A stretch of DNA of 15,390 bases from a virus, in UHGV virus genome UHGV-1727288, one strand, 5' to 3'. Positions 1 to 15,390 of this stretch are shown one piece after another; position 1 is the stretch's first letter; each line of letters opens with the position of its first letter. A program made the position numbers and the translations under genes. A model generated the notes under the pieces. The model saw only the letters and a program-made list of their open reading frames with translations, searched no databases and was not told the DNA's origin.

Positions 1-323
1 CAGCTCCGGGTGATTACCCTGAAAATACAACCACTATCGCCCCGTTAACGCCATACGATAAATGGGATGGTGAGAAATGGGTGACCGATACTGAGGCACA
101 GCATAGCGCCGCAGTAGACGCGGCAGAAGCACAGCGCCAGTCACTGATTGATGCTGCAATGGCTTCCATCAGTCTGATTCAGCTGAAATTACAGGCCGGA
201 CGGAAGCTGACGCAGGCAGAAACAACCCGACTTAACGCCGTGCTGGATTACATTGACGCGGTGGCGGCAACAGATACCAGCACCGCGCCGGATGTCATCT
301 GGCCTGAACTGCCGGAGGCGTAG
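1..323 (+). CDS. Tail fiber assembly protein, alternative copy (Tfa'), 5'-truncated by window edge
   Basis: Open frame from the window start (codon phase 3, 6, ...) to the stop at 321-323. Translation ...PYDKWDGEKWVTDTEAQ...DVIWPELPEA is typical of tail-fiber-assembly C-termini. It is convergent with and overlaps the 3' end of the minus-strand tfa at 295-323. The track start at 81 is a GTG inside a longer open frame. Confidence 0.6.
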   Translation, partial: APGDYPENTTTIAPLTPYDKWDGEKWVTDTEAQHSAAVDAAEAQRQSLIDAAMASISLIQLKLQAGRKLTQAETTRLNAVLDYIDAVAATDTSTAPDVIWPELPEA

Positions 324-732
324 GCCATTCAATATCTGGCGCACCGGTAGTATCGACTAGCTCCAGTGCGTCCAGATAATCCAGCCACGAATTATATTGC
401 GCCAGTTCCTCGCCTTTCAGACGACCAATAGCGGCTTTACCGGGCCATTGTTTACTGTTCATGTATTCGTTGGCCTGATTAAGCAATAATTGCCTTTCTG
501 ATTCTGCCTGTTGAATAAGTTCTTCATGTGATGGTGGAGGTATTAGTGCCCATGTGGGTAATCCATTTTTTCCTGCAACACGAATTTTGTCATCTGGAGG
601 CGTATTGATTGCAAATTCATTATAAACATCATCACTGACAGCAAGAGCATCATCTGGCCATGAATTTGCATTAATGTAATCATCCTTAAGTGCAGGATTC
701 ACAAAAATGTTTAAAGATGGACTATAAAACAT
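295..732 (-). CDS. G: Tail fiber assembly protein (P2 G-like)
   Basis: 145-aa ORF starting 1 nt after the H stop (TAA 734-736, ATG 730-732). C-terminal ...DIEWPTPPAVQAR resembles the Tfa family and sits at the P2 gene G position. Confidence 0.8.
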   Translation of the reverse strand: MFYSPSLNIFVNPALKDDYINANSWPDDALAVSDDVYNEFAINTPPDDKIRVAGKNGLPTWALIPPPSHEELIQQAESERQLLLNQANEYMNSKQWPGKAAIGRLKGEELAQYNSWLDYLDALELVDTTGAPDIEWPTPPAVQAR

Positions 733-3770: not shown

Positions 3771-4402
3771 AGAGGTCCCCCTGTTGTGCCGCCACTGTCG
3801 CCGGGGTGTTTATGGGTATGCAGTACCTTACCGTTTGATGAGAGTTCACCGCCGGTGTGTTCAATGTTGCCGCGCATCGTCCCGCCCTTCTGCACTTCCA
3901 GCGTGCCGGTAATCAGCCTGTTGGTGCAGACTACCTCCGGTGTGTCCAGGGTGATGCGGGTTGACGCTTTCACCATGACCACCGGCACCGTGGCAGTAAC
4001 AGAATCAGAAGCCGTCACGCTGGCCGTTTTAATTCCGCTTACCGTGAGTGCACTGGTTTCGGGTTCATACTCAATCACCGCCCCGTCAGGGAAACGGATA
4101 TGCAGGGCATCCGCCGACGCAGACGGCGCGGGGTTATCGCCGGAATAAATCCCCGGCAGAACGAACGCCGTGTCGAGTTCACCGCCCACGGCCAGAATCA
4201 GCACCTGCTCCCCCACGGAAGGTGCCCACCATGTGCGCGAACGTCCGGCACGATGGGTCAGCCACTGAAGCCAGTCGGTGCACATACCGCCGGTCTGCAC
4301 ACGGCAGCGACCGGCGTTAAGGTCGGTTTCGACGATAATGCCGGGGCGTATCATGTTGCGCAGTGCGCGCGCGAGTTCCTGGATATTTGCGAGTGTTTTC
4401 AT
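3767..4402 (-). CDS. V: Baseplate central spike / assembly protein V
   Basis: From the ATG at 4400-4402 (MKTLANIQELARALRNMIRPGIIVETDL...) the product is 211 aa, matching recalled P2 gpV. The track's longer ORF uses an upstream TTG (4438); an ATG at 4414 is also possible. Confidence 0.85.
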   Translation of the reverse strand: MKTLANIQELARALRNMIRPGIIVETDLNAGRCRVQTGGMCTDWLQWLTHRAGRSRTWWAPSVGEQVLILAVGGELDTAFVLPGIYSGDNPAPSASADALHIRFPDGAVIEYEPETSALTVSGIKTASVTASDSVTATVPVVMVKASTRITLDTPEVVCTNRLITGTLEVQKGGTMRGNIEHTGGELSSNGKVLHTHKHPGDSGGTTGGPL

Positions 4403-4535
4403 AAGATCTAGCATGCTGCTGAGAACTGATGAGAACAATAAAAGAGTGTTTATCTAAGGTTGACACAACACTCCATTTGAAGTGAATATAATGATTACTT
4501 AACTGGCAAAAAAACATCCTCACTAATTGGAGCCA
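4403..4535. promoter_or_regulatory. AT-rich divergent control region: expected late promoter for V (minus strand) plus promoter and RBS for the toxSAS cargo gene (plus strand)
   Basis: Sharp drop in GC relative to flanking genes. TTGACA at 4460-4465 and TATAAT at 4487-4492, but with a 21-nt spacer (non-canonical). GGAG at 4529-4532 upstream of candidate starts. In P2 the V operon has its own Ogr-dependent late promoter at this position. Confidence 0.4.
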
Positions 4536-5627
4536 ATGGATACACGCATGTCAGACATTCTAATTACTTATGATGAACGGAAAGATAAATTTGAGTCCTA
4601 TGCCCTTACTCTTAAATCGTTATTAACCACGTTAATTCGCAATGAAAAAATTTCAATTCACTCACTTGAATCAAGAGTTAAAACAAAAAAAAGCCTTGAA
4701 GGTAAGATTAATAAAAAGGGAAAATACAAGTCTATAGATGATATTACTGATATCGTTGGTATCAGGATCATCACACATTATGCTGATGATGTTGATAAGA
4801 TAGCTGCTATAGTTGAAAAGGAGTTCACCATTGACCAAGAGAACTCTATTGATAAAAGAACCTCAATTGCGCCTGATAAATTTGGTTACCTATCACTTCA
4901 TTATATAGTAACTTTAAACTCAACCAGAACAAACTTAAAAGAATATGAAGTATATAAAAACATCAAAGCCGAATTACAAATACGATCAATCCTTCAGCAT
5001 GCCTGGGCGGAGATTGAACACGACATTGGTTATAAGTCGGCCACAGGACTGCCTAATGAAATAAGAAGATACTTTTCACGCTTAGCTGGTCTTTTAGAAA
5101 TGGCCGATGATGAATTTATTAAAATCAGAAAAAAGATTTCTGAACGGCAGAAAGAGGTTGCAAAAGAACTAGAGCAAGGAACTAGTGATTCAGTTTTAGA
5201 TATTTTCACTTTGGATGAATTCTTAAACACAAGTCGAGTTATGAGTGAACTTTCAGAAGAGATAAAAGAAAAAACAGGAATCACAGTACATGGCCGATAC
5301 AAGGATAAAGATTTGGGATACCTACTAAATGGTTTAAACCTAGCCAACATAACTACAATAGAACAACTCAATCAAAAACTCTCACAAATGAAAAAGCAGA
5401 TCGTAGATAGAATATTCTGCTTCGGAGAACCATTTATTAATTATTGCAGAGAAACCACCATGCCAAAAGAAGCTCTTTTGAGTTATTTATGTCAAATTAT
5501 CGTTGCGTTTCAAAACTCACCTTCGTTAGAATCTGAATTTAATAACAAAGCAGGTTTAAATCTGAAAAACAGCGATATCTCCGATTTTTTCTCGAATATA
5601 AGAGAAAACATAAGCACACAACCTTAG
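4536..5627 (+). CDS. RelA/SpoT-synthetase-domain protein; candidate fused toxSAS toxin-antitoxin (CapRel-like) anti-phage defense protein
   Basis: The N-terminal half has the synthetase motifs of RelA/SpoT nucleotidyltransferases: SRVKTKKSLEGKINKK, DIVGIRIITHYADD, GYLSLHYIV, ELQIRSILQHAWAEIEHDIGYK. The ~160-aa C-terminal extension has no motif I recognise. No adjacent small antitoxin ORF. AT-rich and on the opposite strand to the flanking phage genes. Start is ambiguous: TTG 4527, ATG 4536 or ATG 4548. Confidence 0.8.
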   Translation: MDTRMSDILITYDERKDKFESYALTLKSLLTTLIRNEKISIHSLESRVKTKKSLEGKINKKGKYKSIDDITDIVGIRIITHYADDVDKIAAIVEKEFTIDQENSIDKRTSIAPDKFGYLSLHYIVTLNSTRTNLKEYEVYKNIKAELQIRSILQHAWAEIEHDIGYKSATGLPNEIRRYFSRLAGLLEMADDEFIKIRKKISERQKEVAKELEQGTSDSVLDIFTLDEFLNTSRVMSELSEEIKEKTGITVHGRYKDKDLGYLLNGLNLANITTIEQLNQKLSQMKKQIVDRIFCFGEPFINYCRETTMPKEALLSYLCQIIVAFQNSPSLESEFNNKAGLNLKNSDISDFFSNIRENISTQP

Positions 5628-5656
5628 CTTTAGTTTTAACGTATTCTAACAGAAGA

Positions 5657-5682
5657 CTGCTGCCGGTAAGCACCGGCAGCAG
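5657..5682. terminator. Hairpin between convergent genes (toxSAS gene and S), likely terminator
   Basis: Perfect inverted repeat CTGCTGCCGGT-aagc-ACCGGCAGCAG (11-bp stem, 4-nt loop), 30 nt after the toxSAS stop and 26 nt beyond the S stop. The minus-strand side is followed by a moderately T-rich tract (GTCTTCTGTT); the plus-strand side is not. Confidence 0.55.
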
Positions 5683-5707
5683 CAATGAGGTGTCGGGAAT
5701 GACACAA

Positions 5708-6160
5708 CTAACGCTCAAGGTGAGCCAGGATAATCTCTTCAATCATCTGCGCATCCTCACCGGTAAAGCCGAGCAGAGGACGCGCCGGATAATCAATTTT
5801 CTTACCGTCTTTCCGGGTTTCTTCCGACAGACCGAACTGATGCACACTGGCGATTTTCGGTGACTTCCCGCCGTAAAACTCCATTGATGCCTGTTCAGGG
5901 CTGGCGCGGATATGCAAAAAACGACTGGTGATAAGTTTCGCAAACATTTTTCGCTTAACGCGACCGGTCTTTTTTCTGGCGCTCTGCTGCTGGCGTGGCG
6001 CGTAGGGGGTGCCGTCCGGGGCTTTCTGTGCCATCACCCGACGCTGCTGACTCTGCCGCAGACGTTTCGCCAGTTCGGCGCTCAGTCGCCGACGCCCTGA
6101 CGGTGACAGCGATTCAATCAGTCCGGTCAGCCGGTCTTCAAAACGCTTAAACTCATTCAT
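5708..6160 (-). CDS. S: Tail completion / virion morphogenesis protein S
   Basis: 150-aa ORF matching P2 gpS in length and position. Start overlaps the R stop. Confidence 0.88.
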   Translation of the reverse strand: MNEFKRFEDRLTGLIESLSPSGRRRLSAELAKRLRQSQQRRVMAQKAPDGTPYAPRQQQSARKKTGRVKRKMFAKLITSRFLHIRASPEQASMEFYGGKSPKIASVHQFGLSEETRKDGKKIDYPARPLLGFTGEDAQMIEEIILAHLER

Positions 6161-12081: not shown

Positions 12082-13854
12082 ATGACCATCACCACAGACA
12101 CCACTCTTTTACACGACCCGCGTCGTCAGGCGGCGCTGCTGTACTGGCAGGGGTTTTCCGTGCCGCAGATTGCCGCCATGTTGCAGATGAAACGCCCGAC
12201 GGTGCAGAGCTGGAAACAGCGCGACGGCTGGGACAGTGTTGCCCCCATCAGCCGTGTCGAAATGAGTCTGGAAGCGCGGCTGACCCAGCTCATCATCAAA
12301 CCGCAGAAAACCGGCGGTGACTTCAAGGAAATTGACCTGCTGGGACGCCAGATTGAACGACTGGCACGGGTCAACCGCTACAGCCAGACCGGCAACGAAG
12401 CAGACCTTAATCCGAACGTCGCTAACCGCAACAAAGGCGGGCGTCGCAAACCGAAAAAGAATTTTTTCAGTGACGAGGCCATCGAAAAGCTGGAGCAGAT
12501 TTTCTTTGAGCAGTCTTTCGACTATCAGTTGCACTGGTATCGCGCCGGGCTTGAGCACCGCATCCGCGATATCCTGAAATCCCGCCAGATTGGCGCGACG
12601 TTTTATTTTTCCCGCGAGGCGCTGCTGCGCGCCCTGAAAACCGGTCATAACCAGATTTTTCTGTCGGCCAGTAAAACGCAGGCGTATGTGTTCCGCGAAT
12701 ACATCATCGCCTTTGCCCGGCTGGTTGACGTTGACCTGACCGGTGACCCGATTGTCCTGGGCAATAACGGCGCAAAACTGATTTTTCTCGGCACCAACTC
12801 CAACACCGCGCAGAGCCATAACGGCGACCTGTACGTCGACGAGATTTTCTGGATCCCGAATTTTCAGGTACTGCGTAAGGTGGCATCAGGTATGGCCTCA
12901 CAGAGTCACCTGCGTTCGACCTATTTCTCCACCCCGTCCACGCTGGCGCACGACGCCTACCCGTTCTGGTCGGGTGAACTGTTTAACCGGGGACGCGCCA
13001 GCGCCGCTGAACGCGTGGAAATCGACGTCAGTCATAACGCCCTTGCCGGTGGGCTTCTCTGTGCGGACGGCCAGTGGCGGCAGATTGTCACCATTGAGGA
13101 CGCCCTGAAAGGTGGCTGCACGCTGTTCGACATTGAGCAGCTTAAACGCGAAAACAGCGCCGACGATTTTAAAAACCTGTTCATGTGTGAATTTGTTGAC
13201 GACAAGGCGTCGGTGTTCCCGTTCGAGGAGCTGCAACGCTGCATGGTCGACACGCTGGAAGAATGGGAAGACTATGCGCCGTTTGCCACCAATCCGTTCG
13301 GCTCACGTCCGGTATGGATTGGTTACGACCCGTCACACCGTGGCGACAGCGCCGGATGCGTGGTGCTGGCACCGCCGGTGGTGGCCGGTGGCAAATTCAG
13401 AATACTTGAGCGTCACCAGTGGAAAGGCATGGACTTTGCCACCCAGGCTGAATCCATCCGCAAACTCACCGAAAAATACAACGTCGAATACATCGGAATT
13501 GATGCCACCGGCCTCGGTGTCGGCGTGTTCCAGCTCGTGCGCTCGTTCTATCCCGCCGCGCGCGATATCCGCTACACGCCGGAAATGAAAACCGCAATGG
13601 TGCTCAAGGCAAAAGACGTTATCCGCCGTGGCTGTCTGGAATATGACGTCAGCGCCACCGACATCACCAGCTCGTTTATGGCTATCCGCAAGACCATGAC
13701 CAGCAGTGGACGCAGCGCCACCTATGAGGCCAGCCGCAGCGAGGAAGCCAGCCACGCCGACCTCGCCTGGGCGACCATGCACGCCCTGTTAAATGAGCCA
13801 CTCACCGCCGGTATCAGCACCCCGCTGACATCCACCATTCTGGAGTTTTACTGA
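12082..13854 (+). CDS. P: Terminase large (ATPase) subunit P
   Basis: From the ATG at 12082 (MTITTDTTLLHDPRRQAALLYWQGFSVPQIAAMLQ...) the product is 590 aa, matching recalled P2 gpP. GAGGT Shine-Dalgarno 8 nt upstream. The track ORF starts 10 codons earlier. Confidence 0.93.
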   Translation: MTITTDTTLLHDPRRQAALLYWQGFSVPQIAAMLQMKRPTVQSWKQRDGWDSVAPISRVEMSLEARLTQLIIKPQKTGGDFKEIDLLGRQIERLARVNRYSQTGNEADLNPNVANRNKGGRRKPKKNFFSDEAIEKLEQIFFEQSFDYQLHWYRAGLEHRIRDILKSRQIGATFYFSREALLRALKTGHNQIFLSASKTQAYVFREYIIAFARLVDVDLTGDPIVLGNNGAKLIFLGTNSNTAQSHNGDLYVDEIFWIPNFQVLRKVASGMASQSHLRSTYFSTPSTLAHDAYPFWSGELFNRGRASAAERVEIDVSHNALAGGLLCADGQWRQIVTIEDALKGGCTLFDIEQLKRENSADDFKNLFMCEFVDDKASVFPFEELQRCMVDTLEEWEDYAPFATNPFGSRPVWIGYDPSHRGDSAGCVVLAPPVVAGGKFRILERHQWKGMDFATQAESIRKLTEKYNVEYIGIDATGLGVGVFQLVRSFYPAARDIRYTPEMKTAMVLKAKDVIRRGCLEYDVSATDITSSFMAIRKTMTSSGRSATYEASRSEEASHADLAWATMHALLNEPLTAGISTPLTSTILEFY

Positions 13855-14888
13855 TGAGCAAGAAAAAAGGGAAAACACCGCAACCTGCGGCAAAAAAAAT
13901 GACCGCCAGCGCCCCGAAAATGGAAGCATTCACCTTTGGCGAGCCAGTGCCGGTACTCGACCGCCGTGACATTCTGGATTATGTCGAGTGCATCAGTAAC
14001 GGCAGATGGTATGAGCCACCGGTCAGCTTTACCGGTCTGGCAAAAAGCCTGCGTGCTGCCGTGCATCACAGCTCACCGATTTACGTCAAACGCAATATTC
14101 TGGCCTCGACATTTATCCCGCACCCGTGGCTTTCCCAGCAGGATTTCAGCCGCTTTGTGCTGGATTTTCTGGTGTTCGGTAATGCGTTTCTGGAAAAGCG
14201 TTACAGCACCACCGGTAAGGTCATCAGACTGGAAACCTCACCGGCAAAATATACCCGCCGTGGCGTGGAGGAGGATGTTTACTGGTGGGTGCCGTCCTTC
14301 AACGAGCCGACACCTTTCGCGCCCGGCTCCGTGTTTCACCTGCTGGAGCCGGATATTAATCAGGAGCTGTACGGCCTGCCGGAATATCTCAGCGCCCTTA
14401 ACTCTGCCTGGCTGAATGAGTCGGCCACGCTGTTCCGCCGCAAGTATTACGAAAACGGCGCACATGCCGGATACATCATGTACGTCACTGATGCCGTGCA
14501 GGATCGCAACGATATCGAAATGCTTCGCGAAAACATGGTGAAGTCGAAAGGCCGCAACAACTTTAAAAATCTGTTTCTCTACGCCCCGCAGGGAAAAGCC
14601 GACGGCATTAAAATTATCCCGCTCAGTGAAGTGGCGACGAAAGACGATTTTTTTAATATCAAAAAAGCCAGCGCCGCTGACCTGCTGGACGCGCACCGCA
14701 TCCCCTTTCAGTTGATGGGCGGCAAGCCGGAGAATGTCGGGTCGCTGGGGGATATTGAGAAAGTGGCAAAGGTCTTTGTCCGCAATGAGCTTATCCCGTT
14801 ACAGGACAGGATCCGCGAGATAAACGGCTGGCTCGGTCAGGAGGTCATCCGCTTTAAAAACTACTCACTGGACACTGACAACGGCTGA
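13854..14888 (+). CDS. Q: Portal (capsid portal vertex) protein Q
   Basis: 344-aa ORF matching P2 gpQ in length and position. Its start overlaps the P stop (TGATG). Confidence 0.92.
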   Translation: MSKKKGKTPQPAAKKMTASAPKMEAFTFGEPVPVLDRRDILDYVECISNGRWYEPPVSFTGLAKSLRAAVHHSSPIYVKRNILASTFIPHPWLSQQDFSRFVLDFLVFGNAFLEKRYSTTGKVIRLETSPAKYTRRGVEEDVYWWVPSFNEPTPFAPGSVFHLLEPDINQELYGLPEYLSALNSAWLNESATLFRRKYYENGAHAGYIMYVTDAVQDRNDIEMLRENMVKSKGRNNFKNLFLYAPQGKADGIKIIPLSEVATKDDFFNIKKASAADLLDAHRIPFQLMGGKPENVGSLGDIEKVAKVFVRNELIPLQDRIREINGWLGQEVIRFKNYSLDTDNG

Positions 14889-14893
14889 ACATC

Positions 14894-14915
14894 GCCGCCT
14901 GCGGGCGGCTTTTTT
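14894..14915 (+). terminator. Rho-independent terminator after Q
   Basis: GCCGCC-tgcg-GGCGGC stem-loop followed immediately by TTTTTT, 6 nt after the Q stop codon. Confidence 0.75.
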
Positions 14916-15057: not shown

Positions 15058-15076
15058 GTGCTTTCCCCGCCTCGCC
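15058..15076. other. cos site: P2-type 19-nt cohesive-end sequence
   Basis: GTGCTTTCCCCGCCTCGCC is the exact reverse complement of the recalled P2 cohesive end 5'-GGCGAGGCGGGGAAAGCAC-3'. It lies ~170 bp past Q, as in P2. Confidence 0.7.
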
Positions 15077-15314
15077 CGCCCGCTTCATGGGGCGGTTTTA
15101 ATGCAGTTGCATGATTTAGCCGAATCCGCGCCATTGTTGACATTGATGTTTTGATATGGATATGGCGTAAGCATGCGAATTCATTCAAGATGATGCAAGA
15201 ATGATGAAATTATGGTACAGATCGATTAGCCATAATATGCCCCACGTTGTTACATGTGGTTCATAAGAGTTATGGCTCATAGGGATTTATACAAAATATA
15301 TATAGGTAATTATC

Positions 15315-15390
15315 ATGTCAGGTGAAACTCAAAATATTTCAGCAATGGCAGAAAAAATATCTTCAGACCTATTCAAATGGTTTAAGTGGG
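15315..15390 (+). CDS. Start of an unidentified AT-rich ORF (runs off window edge); possible cargo gene at the cos-proximal locus
   Basis: ATG at 15315 preceded by AGGT 7 nt upstream. Open frame to the window end (MSGETQNISAMAEKISSDLFKWFKW...). AT-rich like the toxSAS gene. Only 25 codons are visible. Confidence 0.3.
   Translation, partial: MSGETQNISAMAEKISSDLFKWFKW

Follow-up and report, generated by a model that had tools for sequence, protein, structure and literature searches.

The AT-rich DNA beyond cos in a P2-like prophage is very probably the left edge of a 3HP anti-phage cassette

The region between cos and gene A of P2-like phages is a hotspot for defence genes (Rousset et al. 2022, Cell Host Microbe, PMC9122126). 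The virus genome studied here, UHGV-1727288, whose whole 15,390-nt stretch is called the window below, ends inside this region: beyond cos the DNA turns AT-rich, and the first 76 nt of a new gene are visible where the sequence stops. Which cargo begins there, and how might it act? The original prediction, made from the letters of the window, proposed a second cargo locus at the position of old and tin in P2, possibly a further defence system. The features of this edge are the following, in window coordinates.

13854 to 14888, plus strand: P2 gene Q, encoding the portal protein (from the ORF list; Phage_portal by Pfam in related contigs).
14894 to 14909, plus strand: terminator-like GC hairpin followed by a T-run, 3' of Q (from the sequence; the hairpin lies at 12005-12020 of L001, the E. 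coli 401651 locus, whose coordinates are those of the window minus 2889).
15058 to 15076, minus strand: cos, the exact P2 19-nt cohesive end GGCGAGGCGGGGAAAGCAC (single exact match).
15112 to 15181, no strand: junction zone, where backbone homology ends at about 15112-15116 and the next 70 nt are common to prophages with other cargo.
15171 to 15226, plus strand: conserved block upstream of the gene called hp1 below (from an alignment of seven enterobacterial upstream regions).
15304 to 15307, plus strand: Shine-Dalgarno sequence AGGT, 7 nt ahead of the start codon (AGGT(A/G)A is invariant in seven upstream regions).
15315 to 15390, plus strand: opening 76 nt (25 codons) of hp1; the gene continues past the end of the window and has 354 aa in relatives.

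Gene Q is the final backbone gene ahead of cos and is annotated as "phage portal protein" in a record 99% identical to the window. Shuffling the sequence 200 times never produced the cos 19-mer, which also occurs in the P2 old-tin clone given in Rousset Table S2 (PMC9122126), and a GC hairpin at 15076-15095 adjoins cos. The compositional switch beyond cos is real, as had been noted: positions 15101-15390 have a GC of 0.359 where the remainder of the window has 0.54, and the drop falls at the very position where homology to P2-like prophages ends. This homology stops at 15105-15116 in most records and reaches 15133 or 15181 in a minority; hundreds of E. coli records diverge from the window past about 15105-15116. 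The segment 15112-15181 is 94% identical to a P2-like prophage of E. coli GYB01 (L089 6001-6292), which has a SIR2-family gene of 1011 aa, oriented the other way, as its cargo in this slot. The approximately 70 nt shared past the junction may be a recombination scar, or else a common edge used for cargo exchange.

Scanning the window in 290-nt stretches reveals three places with a GC of 0.40 or less: about 415-900, 4326-5770, and 15067 to the end. The stretch at about 415-900 (ORF 295-732, minus strand) belongs to the tail-fibre and assembly region at the left end of the window. The island at about 4326-5770 holds an AT-rich cargo gene (4549-5628, plus strand, GC 0.335), placed between baseplate gene V and a virion-morphogenesis gene. 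Its 359-aa product is a RelA/SpoT-type nucleotide pyrophosphokinase (Pfam RelA_SpoT, 1.8e-21; PADLOC candidate PDC-S33, 1e-16), possibly a CapRel-like toxSAS defence protein, and the gene is presumably the first cargo locus that the original prediction had in mind when it spoke of a second.

Both the ATG at 15315 and the AGGT that had been proposed as its Shine-Dalgarno sequence at 15304-15307 are confirmed, and the frame that they open, translated as MSGETQNISAMAEKISSDLFKWFKW, leaves the window after 25 codons. Its continuation can be read in relatives. The closest genome belongs to E. coli 401651 (NZ_CM129040.1), whose P2-like prophage, inserted beside yegR/yegS, is 99.1% identical to the window overall and 100% identical across its last 591 nt. 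There the ORF of 354 aa is followed by ORFs of 370 and 223 aa, a hairpin terminator and, on the opposite strand, gene A; the first two ORFs, hp1 and hp2, share 4 nt (ATGA), and 11 nt separate hp2 from hp3. The three genes, with gene A behind them, occur in nine of nine complete E. coli genomes that matched a 501-nt query over its full length, at an identity of at least 95.8%. They recur in three of five IMG/VR contigs that carry the exact 76-nt gene start and are 97-98.5% identical to the window (the three that extend far enough), and in five further assemblies, found through their identical third protein and at most 99.82% identical to the window. Among all sequences with the same gene start, an intact 354-aa ORF was missed solely in L005 and L007, which are cut by contig or locus ends. 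From these unanimous relatives we infer that the downstream genes of the window are likewise hp1, hp2 and hp3. The frame thus does not close soon after the edge of the window, being 354 aa long in the nearest relatives, nor is it a P2 core gene: what lies between cos and gene A is a three-gene operon, as expected for a second cargo locus at the old/tin position.

The two closest relatives also share an insertion outside this operon. An IS3-family element lies at the 3' end of gene A in E. coli 401651 (L001, approximately 15465-16795) and again in GCA_029999835.1 (L097 6946-8174); in both it replaces the last nine residues of gpA, ...DGWPGFTTVID becoming ...DGWLGFMDLPLYFQTPVIT. The insertion may affect replication of the prophage.

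Which system do the three genes form? A PADLOC scan of their products in the relatives returned the Hp1, Hp2 and Hp3 models only. The three models follow one another and are matched almost end to end: Hp1 with 1.9e-63 (residues 1-350 of 354), Hp2 with 2.2e-37 (4-363 of 370) and Hp3 with 6e-8 (2-201 of 223). A three-gene system "with no clear predicted domain" has been cloned from the P2 hotspot and shown to protect against P1 (PMC9122126); its proteins, encoded on pFR109 and originating from E. coli E1114, are entered as "hp + hp + hp" in Table S2 of that study. BLASTP against these validated proteins gives full-length alignments with 36, 31 and 19% identity (E of 5e-67, 9e-40 and 1e-10), and the genes stand in the pFR109 order, adjacent and co-oriented. 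Moreover, Table S5 of the same study lists WP_024160514 + WP_001398851 + WP_032238998 as the P2-hotspot content of several genomes (PMC9122126), and this is the trio of CFSAN061763, a relative 99% identical to the window. The original prediction had recognised no match for the visible N-terminus; this needs correcting, as the protein belongs to a catalogued system with near-identical alleles in Table S5, and went unrecognised because the family bears no informative name. The suspicion of defence cargo, on the other hand, is borne out by the PADLOC models and by a validated hp + hp + hp system in the same hotspot.

We conclude, with high confidence, that the AT-rich tail of the window marks the beginning of a 3HP cassette (hp1-hp2-hp3, about 3.1 kb, GC 0.34) that was acquired horizontally and occupies the hotspot between cos and gene A of a P2-like prophage. 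We take 3HP to be the system named Rst_3HP in DefenseFinder. The present allele is a diverged member of this catalogued family, and its protective role against phages is predicted from a homologue that is 19-36% identical. The two alleles share the hotspot, the gene order and an HPxD...DLKS motif in Hp1. They differ in protein size (354, 370 and 223 aa here, 333, 359 and 227 aa in pFR109) as well as in sequence, the tested allele being only 36, 31 and 19% identical to the present one, and it was published without assigned domains or mechanism. With old, tin and orf91 of P2, the cassette shares the slot from cos to gene A and a general role, the exclusion of other phages by a prophage-encoded function. 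Of these proteins, Old acts as an ATPase-TOPRIM nuclease, and Tin inhibits T-even replication. In length and sequence, however, Old and Tin, as given in Rousset Table S2, are unrelated to the present proteins.

The distribution of 3HP is that of a unit independent of P2. Of 5426 complete E. coli genomes, 10 contain the cassette, whereas the neighbouring cos region is present in more than 2000; deposited phage genomes lack the cassette at the DNA level. An identical Hp3 protein nevertheless occurs in 1309 index blocks of an assembly collection, many of them from Salmonella, and a census describes 3HP as abundant in Salmonella Typhi and Paratyphi A, where it is mostly prophage-borne (PMC11305592). 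Searching species-representative genomes by Hp1 alignment yielded 80 loci with Hp1 at 35-87% identity, in Enterobacterales, many Pseudomonas, Vibrio, Burkholderiales and others. Hidden Markov models of Hp2 and Hp3 place hp2 and hp3 immediately downstream of hp1 and co-oriented with it in all 74 loci with enough DNA, the remaining six being contig ends; three-gene synteny is therefore strict across Proteobacteria. A P2 portal gene or gene A lies nearby in only three of these loci, and about 70 of the 80 are outside P2 phages; the cassette is an autonomous unit that P2-like phages have captured. An exhaustive Hp1 profile search extended the family to 518 representatives at 50% clustering, and a plasmid triad whose Hp1 is 26% identical still retains all three genes.

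Several related loci lie further afield. About a dozen plasmids of Enterobacter, Citrobacter and Klebsiella carry a distant triad of 363, 415 and 215 aa in which HPTD...DLK is kept, for instance the IncFIB plasmid of Citrobacter freundii (L091 5001-7994), and an apparently decayed copy stands beside IS110 on pKP100-mcr8 of K. pneumoniae (L092 2307-5311). A second 3HP variant, with 76% DNA identity, fills the corresponding slot in a Klebsiella-like P2 prophage of E. coli MRSN346647 (L090 4002-6870), which shows that alleles within the 3HP family are exchanged at the P2 hotspot.

The original prediction also pointed to a TTGACA beyond cos. The hexamer does lie at 15137-15142; as evidence of a promoter, by contrast, it is poor. 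With three copies on each strand of the 15.4-kb window, TTGACA is about as frequent as chance predicts, a promoter scan found no -10 partner at a distance of 16-18 nt, and the hexamer falls within the 70 nt common to the SIR2-cargo prophage, hence is not specific to the 3HP cassette. Closer to hp1, the block 15171-15226 aligns across seven upstream regions of enterobacterial 3HP cassettes, taken from E. coli, Erwinia, Superficieibacter (partial), Pluralibacter, Ewingella and Yersinia, whereas its flanks do not. It comprises three ATGCA(A/T) repeats with a spacing of about 10 nt, followed by TATGRT. Convincing -35 and -10 elements were sought inside the block and none could be assigned, for which reason we propose it as a candidate promoter or operator by way of hypothesis. 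Pseudomonas cassettes (L035-L051, L058, L064, L086) have another conserved sequence, …TTTGTGCTGGCATGAGGCCATATTC…GTTCCTGCGCATTCATTTCGTGACAGGAAC…, approximately 100-130 nt 5' of hp1, which suggests lineage-specific regulation.

What might the three proteins do? PHROGs assigns them to three families of unknown function, Pfam-A (in a set without PF26115) and NCBIfam searches returned no match for any of them, and no PDB sequence relatives of Hp1, Hp2 or Hp3, or of their profiles, were found. A precomputed match to PF26115, PDDEXK_GAPS4 (E <= 1e-5 class), does exist on the 354-aa Hp1 product and on 118 of the 120 Hp1 homologues listed, and one Hp1 allele is recorded in RefSeq as a PD-(D/E)XK nuclease domain protein. 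In 60-61 aligned homologues the motif H50-P-T-D53 ... D72-L-K74-S75 does not vary; among 148 diverse representatives (50% clustering), HPxD is present in 141 and DxK in 143, as expected for an active site under selection. Given the precomputed Pfam match and this motif, Hp1 is a predicted PD-(D/E)XK nuclease of the GAPS4 domain type.

For Hp2 and Hp3, confident AlphaFold models (pLDDT 82 and pTM 0.72 for Hp2; pLDDT 92 and pTM 0.84 for Hp3) suggest the fold common to RdgC and CENP-L-CENP-N (Iml3-Chl4). The best Foldseek matches of Hp2 among viral models are phage "Recombination-associated proteins", aligned over the full length with E between 1.4e-5 and 2.6e-5. Matches to RexA are much weaker than those to RdgC and Iml3, and the alpha/beta units of which the RdgC fold is made are common ones, with scores against KA1, TBP-like and RnlA domains as well. 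No Pfam RdgC match was obtained in Hp2 or Hp3 at E <= 1, and hhalign against E. coli RdgC gives probabilities of 0.8% for the Hp2 profile and 0.3% for the Hp3 profile. There being no link in sequence to RdgC, the idea of a ring is an analogy at the level of the fold. Ahead of its RdgC-like body, the Hp2 model has a four-helix N-terminal domain with a pI of 9.3; whole-protein pI values, from 5.1 to 6.5, are acidic to neutral.

The proteins that share this fold form different assemblies: RdgC forms a homodimeric ring whose basic pore takes DNA, Iml3-Chl4 forms a heterodimeric horseshoe that grips centromeric DNA, and RexA, which resembles RdgC, serves a phage-exclusion system as its DNA-binding sensor; none of the three binds DNA in a sequence-specific manner (PMC11077077). 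E. coli RdgC (PDB 2OWL), Iml3-Chl4 / CENP-L-CENP-N and lambda RexA (PDB 8TWQ) are without detectable sequence similarity to Hp2 and Hp3. RdgC, furthermore, is a homodimer with no associated nuclease, whereas here two different proteins of predicted RdgC fold are encoded beside one.

The most conserved part of Hp2 across 75 loci is a segment at residues 253-266 or thereabouts (L001 14243-14284), with the pattern [HR]-I-x-[KR]-A-S-L-[KR]-G-x-G-V, preceded by an acidic, low-confidence linker, NENEDDSDDDD. The segment is a candidate site of contact with DNA or a partner. Hp3 has a look-alike, conserved among enterobacterial members only. This lysine-rich KAxLKG segment, family-wide in Hp2 and not in Hp3, was rejected as a link between the two proteins, and so was the notion that they are detectable paralogues (hhalign probability 1.2%).

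The domain assigned to Hp1 invites a comparison with GAPS4, a system formed by GAPS4a and GAPS4b (Mahata et al., bioRxiv 10.1101/2023.03.28.534373, 10.1101/2025.09.07.674715). GAPS4 is reported to be an a2b2 complex in which GAPS4b makes a ring and the nuclease GAPS4a is docked on helical domains; it senses linear or broken DNA, degrades DNA non-selectively, and is abortive (bioRxiv 10.1101/2025.09.07.674715). The likenesses to 3HP are several: PF26115, built on the GAPS4 nuclease domain, has a precomputed match on Hp1; the catalytic Asp has a similar position (D53 in Hp1, D59 and D49 in two GAPS4a proteins); the partner proteins are similar in size; and the GAPS4b ring with its nuclease-holding helical domains has a counterpart in the modelled helical N-terminal domain of Hp2 and the ring-type RdgC fold. 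The differences are equally plain. GAPS4 consists of two genes, or one fusion, against three in 3HP, the GAPS4a motif is HGxD...SxK where Hp1 has HPxD...DxK, and GAPS4 protects against many coliphages, the tested 3HP against P1 only. GAPS4 relatives were looked for at three levels: no two-gene system occurs among the 80 Hp1-related loci, the best 150 of the 518 representatives from the exhaustive Hp1 profile search are all of Hp1 type with no GAPS4a-type protein among them, and tblastn on plasmids for GAPS4-type systems brought up three-gene triads and one decayed copy only. With its three genes and a motif differing from that of GAPS4a, 3HP is not a member of GAPS4, and by analogy it may work like it.

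A working model can be assembled from these assignments. Hp1 would be the effector, a PD-(D/E)XK DNase. Hp2 and Hp3 together would build a DNA-binding ring serving as the sensor, most likely of linear or broken DNA, or of a recombination or replication intermediate of an incoming phage. Hp1 would dock on the basic four-helix N-terminal domain of Hp2, and the ring, on engaging DNA, would license it to cut. All that goes beyond the fold assignments being inference by analogy, we hold this model of a DNA-encircling Hp2-Hp3 sensor licensing the Hp1 nuclease only tentatively; more tentatively still, 3HP might be a three-subunit elaboration of a GAPS4-type DNA-integrity sentinel, in which a ring of RdgC type, heterodimeric and pseudo-symmetric, would clamp, or be threaded by, exposed ends of phage DNA or recombination intermediates and so activate the docked Hp1 DNase. 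Identity and mechanism taken jointly are, on balance, probably right. It may be speculated that the P1-only range of the tested homologue fits a sensor of exposed ends or cyclisation intermediates.

Other schemes would use the same parts differently. Hp1 could be a toxin held by Hp2 and/or Hp3 and freed when a phage protein removes or degrades them, so that the module would be abortive without any DNA sensing by a ring. Such toxin-antitoxin-like working is common among prophage defence cargoes, would agree with the tight translational coupling of three genes that are never found apart, and has a parallel in the abortive outcome of GAPS4; two partners with a DNA-binding fold, however, exceed the needs of a simple antitoxin, and we regard the scheme as unlikely. 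Judged quite unlikely is a logic closer to RexA, whereby the RdgC-fold proteins would sense a phage protein-DNA or recombination complex, for instance P1 cyclisation intermediates, rather than free ends, and Hp1 would act on a specific target, not necessarily bulk DNA. RexA, however, is by far the weaker of the fold matches, the cassette has no RexB-like membrane partner, and the conserved PD-(D/E)XK triad suggests phosphodiester cleavage.

The remaining two readings dispute that the locus is functional defence cargo at all. RdgC is a modulator of RecA and has phage-encoded counterparts, the RdgC-like "recombination-associated proteins", and so the three genes could be an accessory, RdgC-like RecA modulators plus a nuclease, for recombination or replication of the P2-like phage itself. 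Against this stand the exchange of unrelated defence genes (old/tin, SIR2, others) at the same slot, the location of most species-level loci (some 70 of 80) outside P2 phages, the measurable P1 protection given by the homologue, a GC of 0.34 against 0.54 that marks the cassette as foreign, and its rarity, at 10 of 5426 complete E. coli genomes, when more than 2000 have the adjoining cos region; the accessory role is accordingly very improbable. Least credible of all is a spurious or truncated ORF in the window's own genome, with no functional cargo behind it. The visible part is indeed only 76 nt long and a related triad has decayed on pKP100-mcr8, but every carrier of this gene start save the end-cut L005 and L007 has the 354 aa intact, and the identical Hp3 in 1309 index blocks speaks against it.

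As an annotation, the finding adds little: the 3HP cassette at the P2 cos-to-A hotspot is an already catalogued system at a known location, indeed a textbook site of defence cargo, and for that reason its novelty is low; running a defence finder on the full prophage would label the genes as 3HP. The mechanism is another matter. A literature search for it produced census mentions only, and it appears to be unpublished. New here is the GAPS4-type PD-(D/E)XK domain predicted on Hp1, with its strictly conserved HPxD...DLKS motif. The fold assignments turn three hypothetical proteins into a concrete and cheaply testable model, connecting 3HP with GAPS4 and with the RexA/RdgC fold. Since 3HP is abundant in prophages of Salmonella Typhi and Paratyphi A (PMC11305592), the range of phages that it affects is of some relevance to phage therapy and phage typing. 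If the sentinel reading is true, it would explain the sensitivity of P1, a phage obliged to cyclise by recombination, and the RdgC / CENP-LN fold would be a recurrent DNA-sensing module of bacterial immunity, found in 3HP, in RexA and possibly in GAPS4b.
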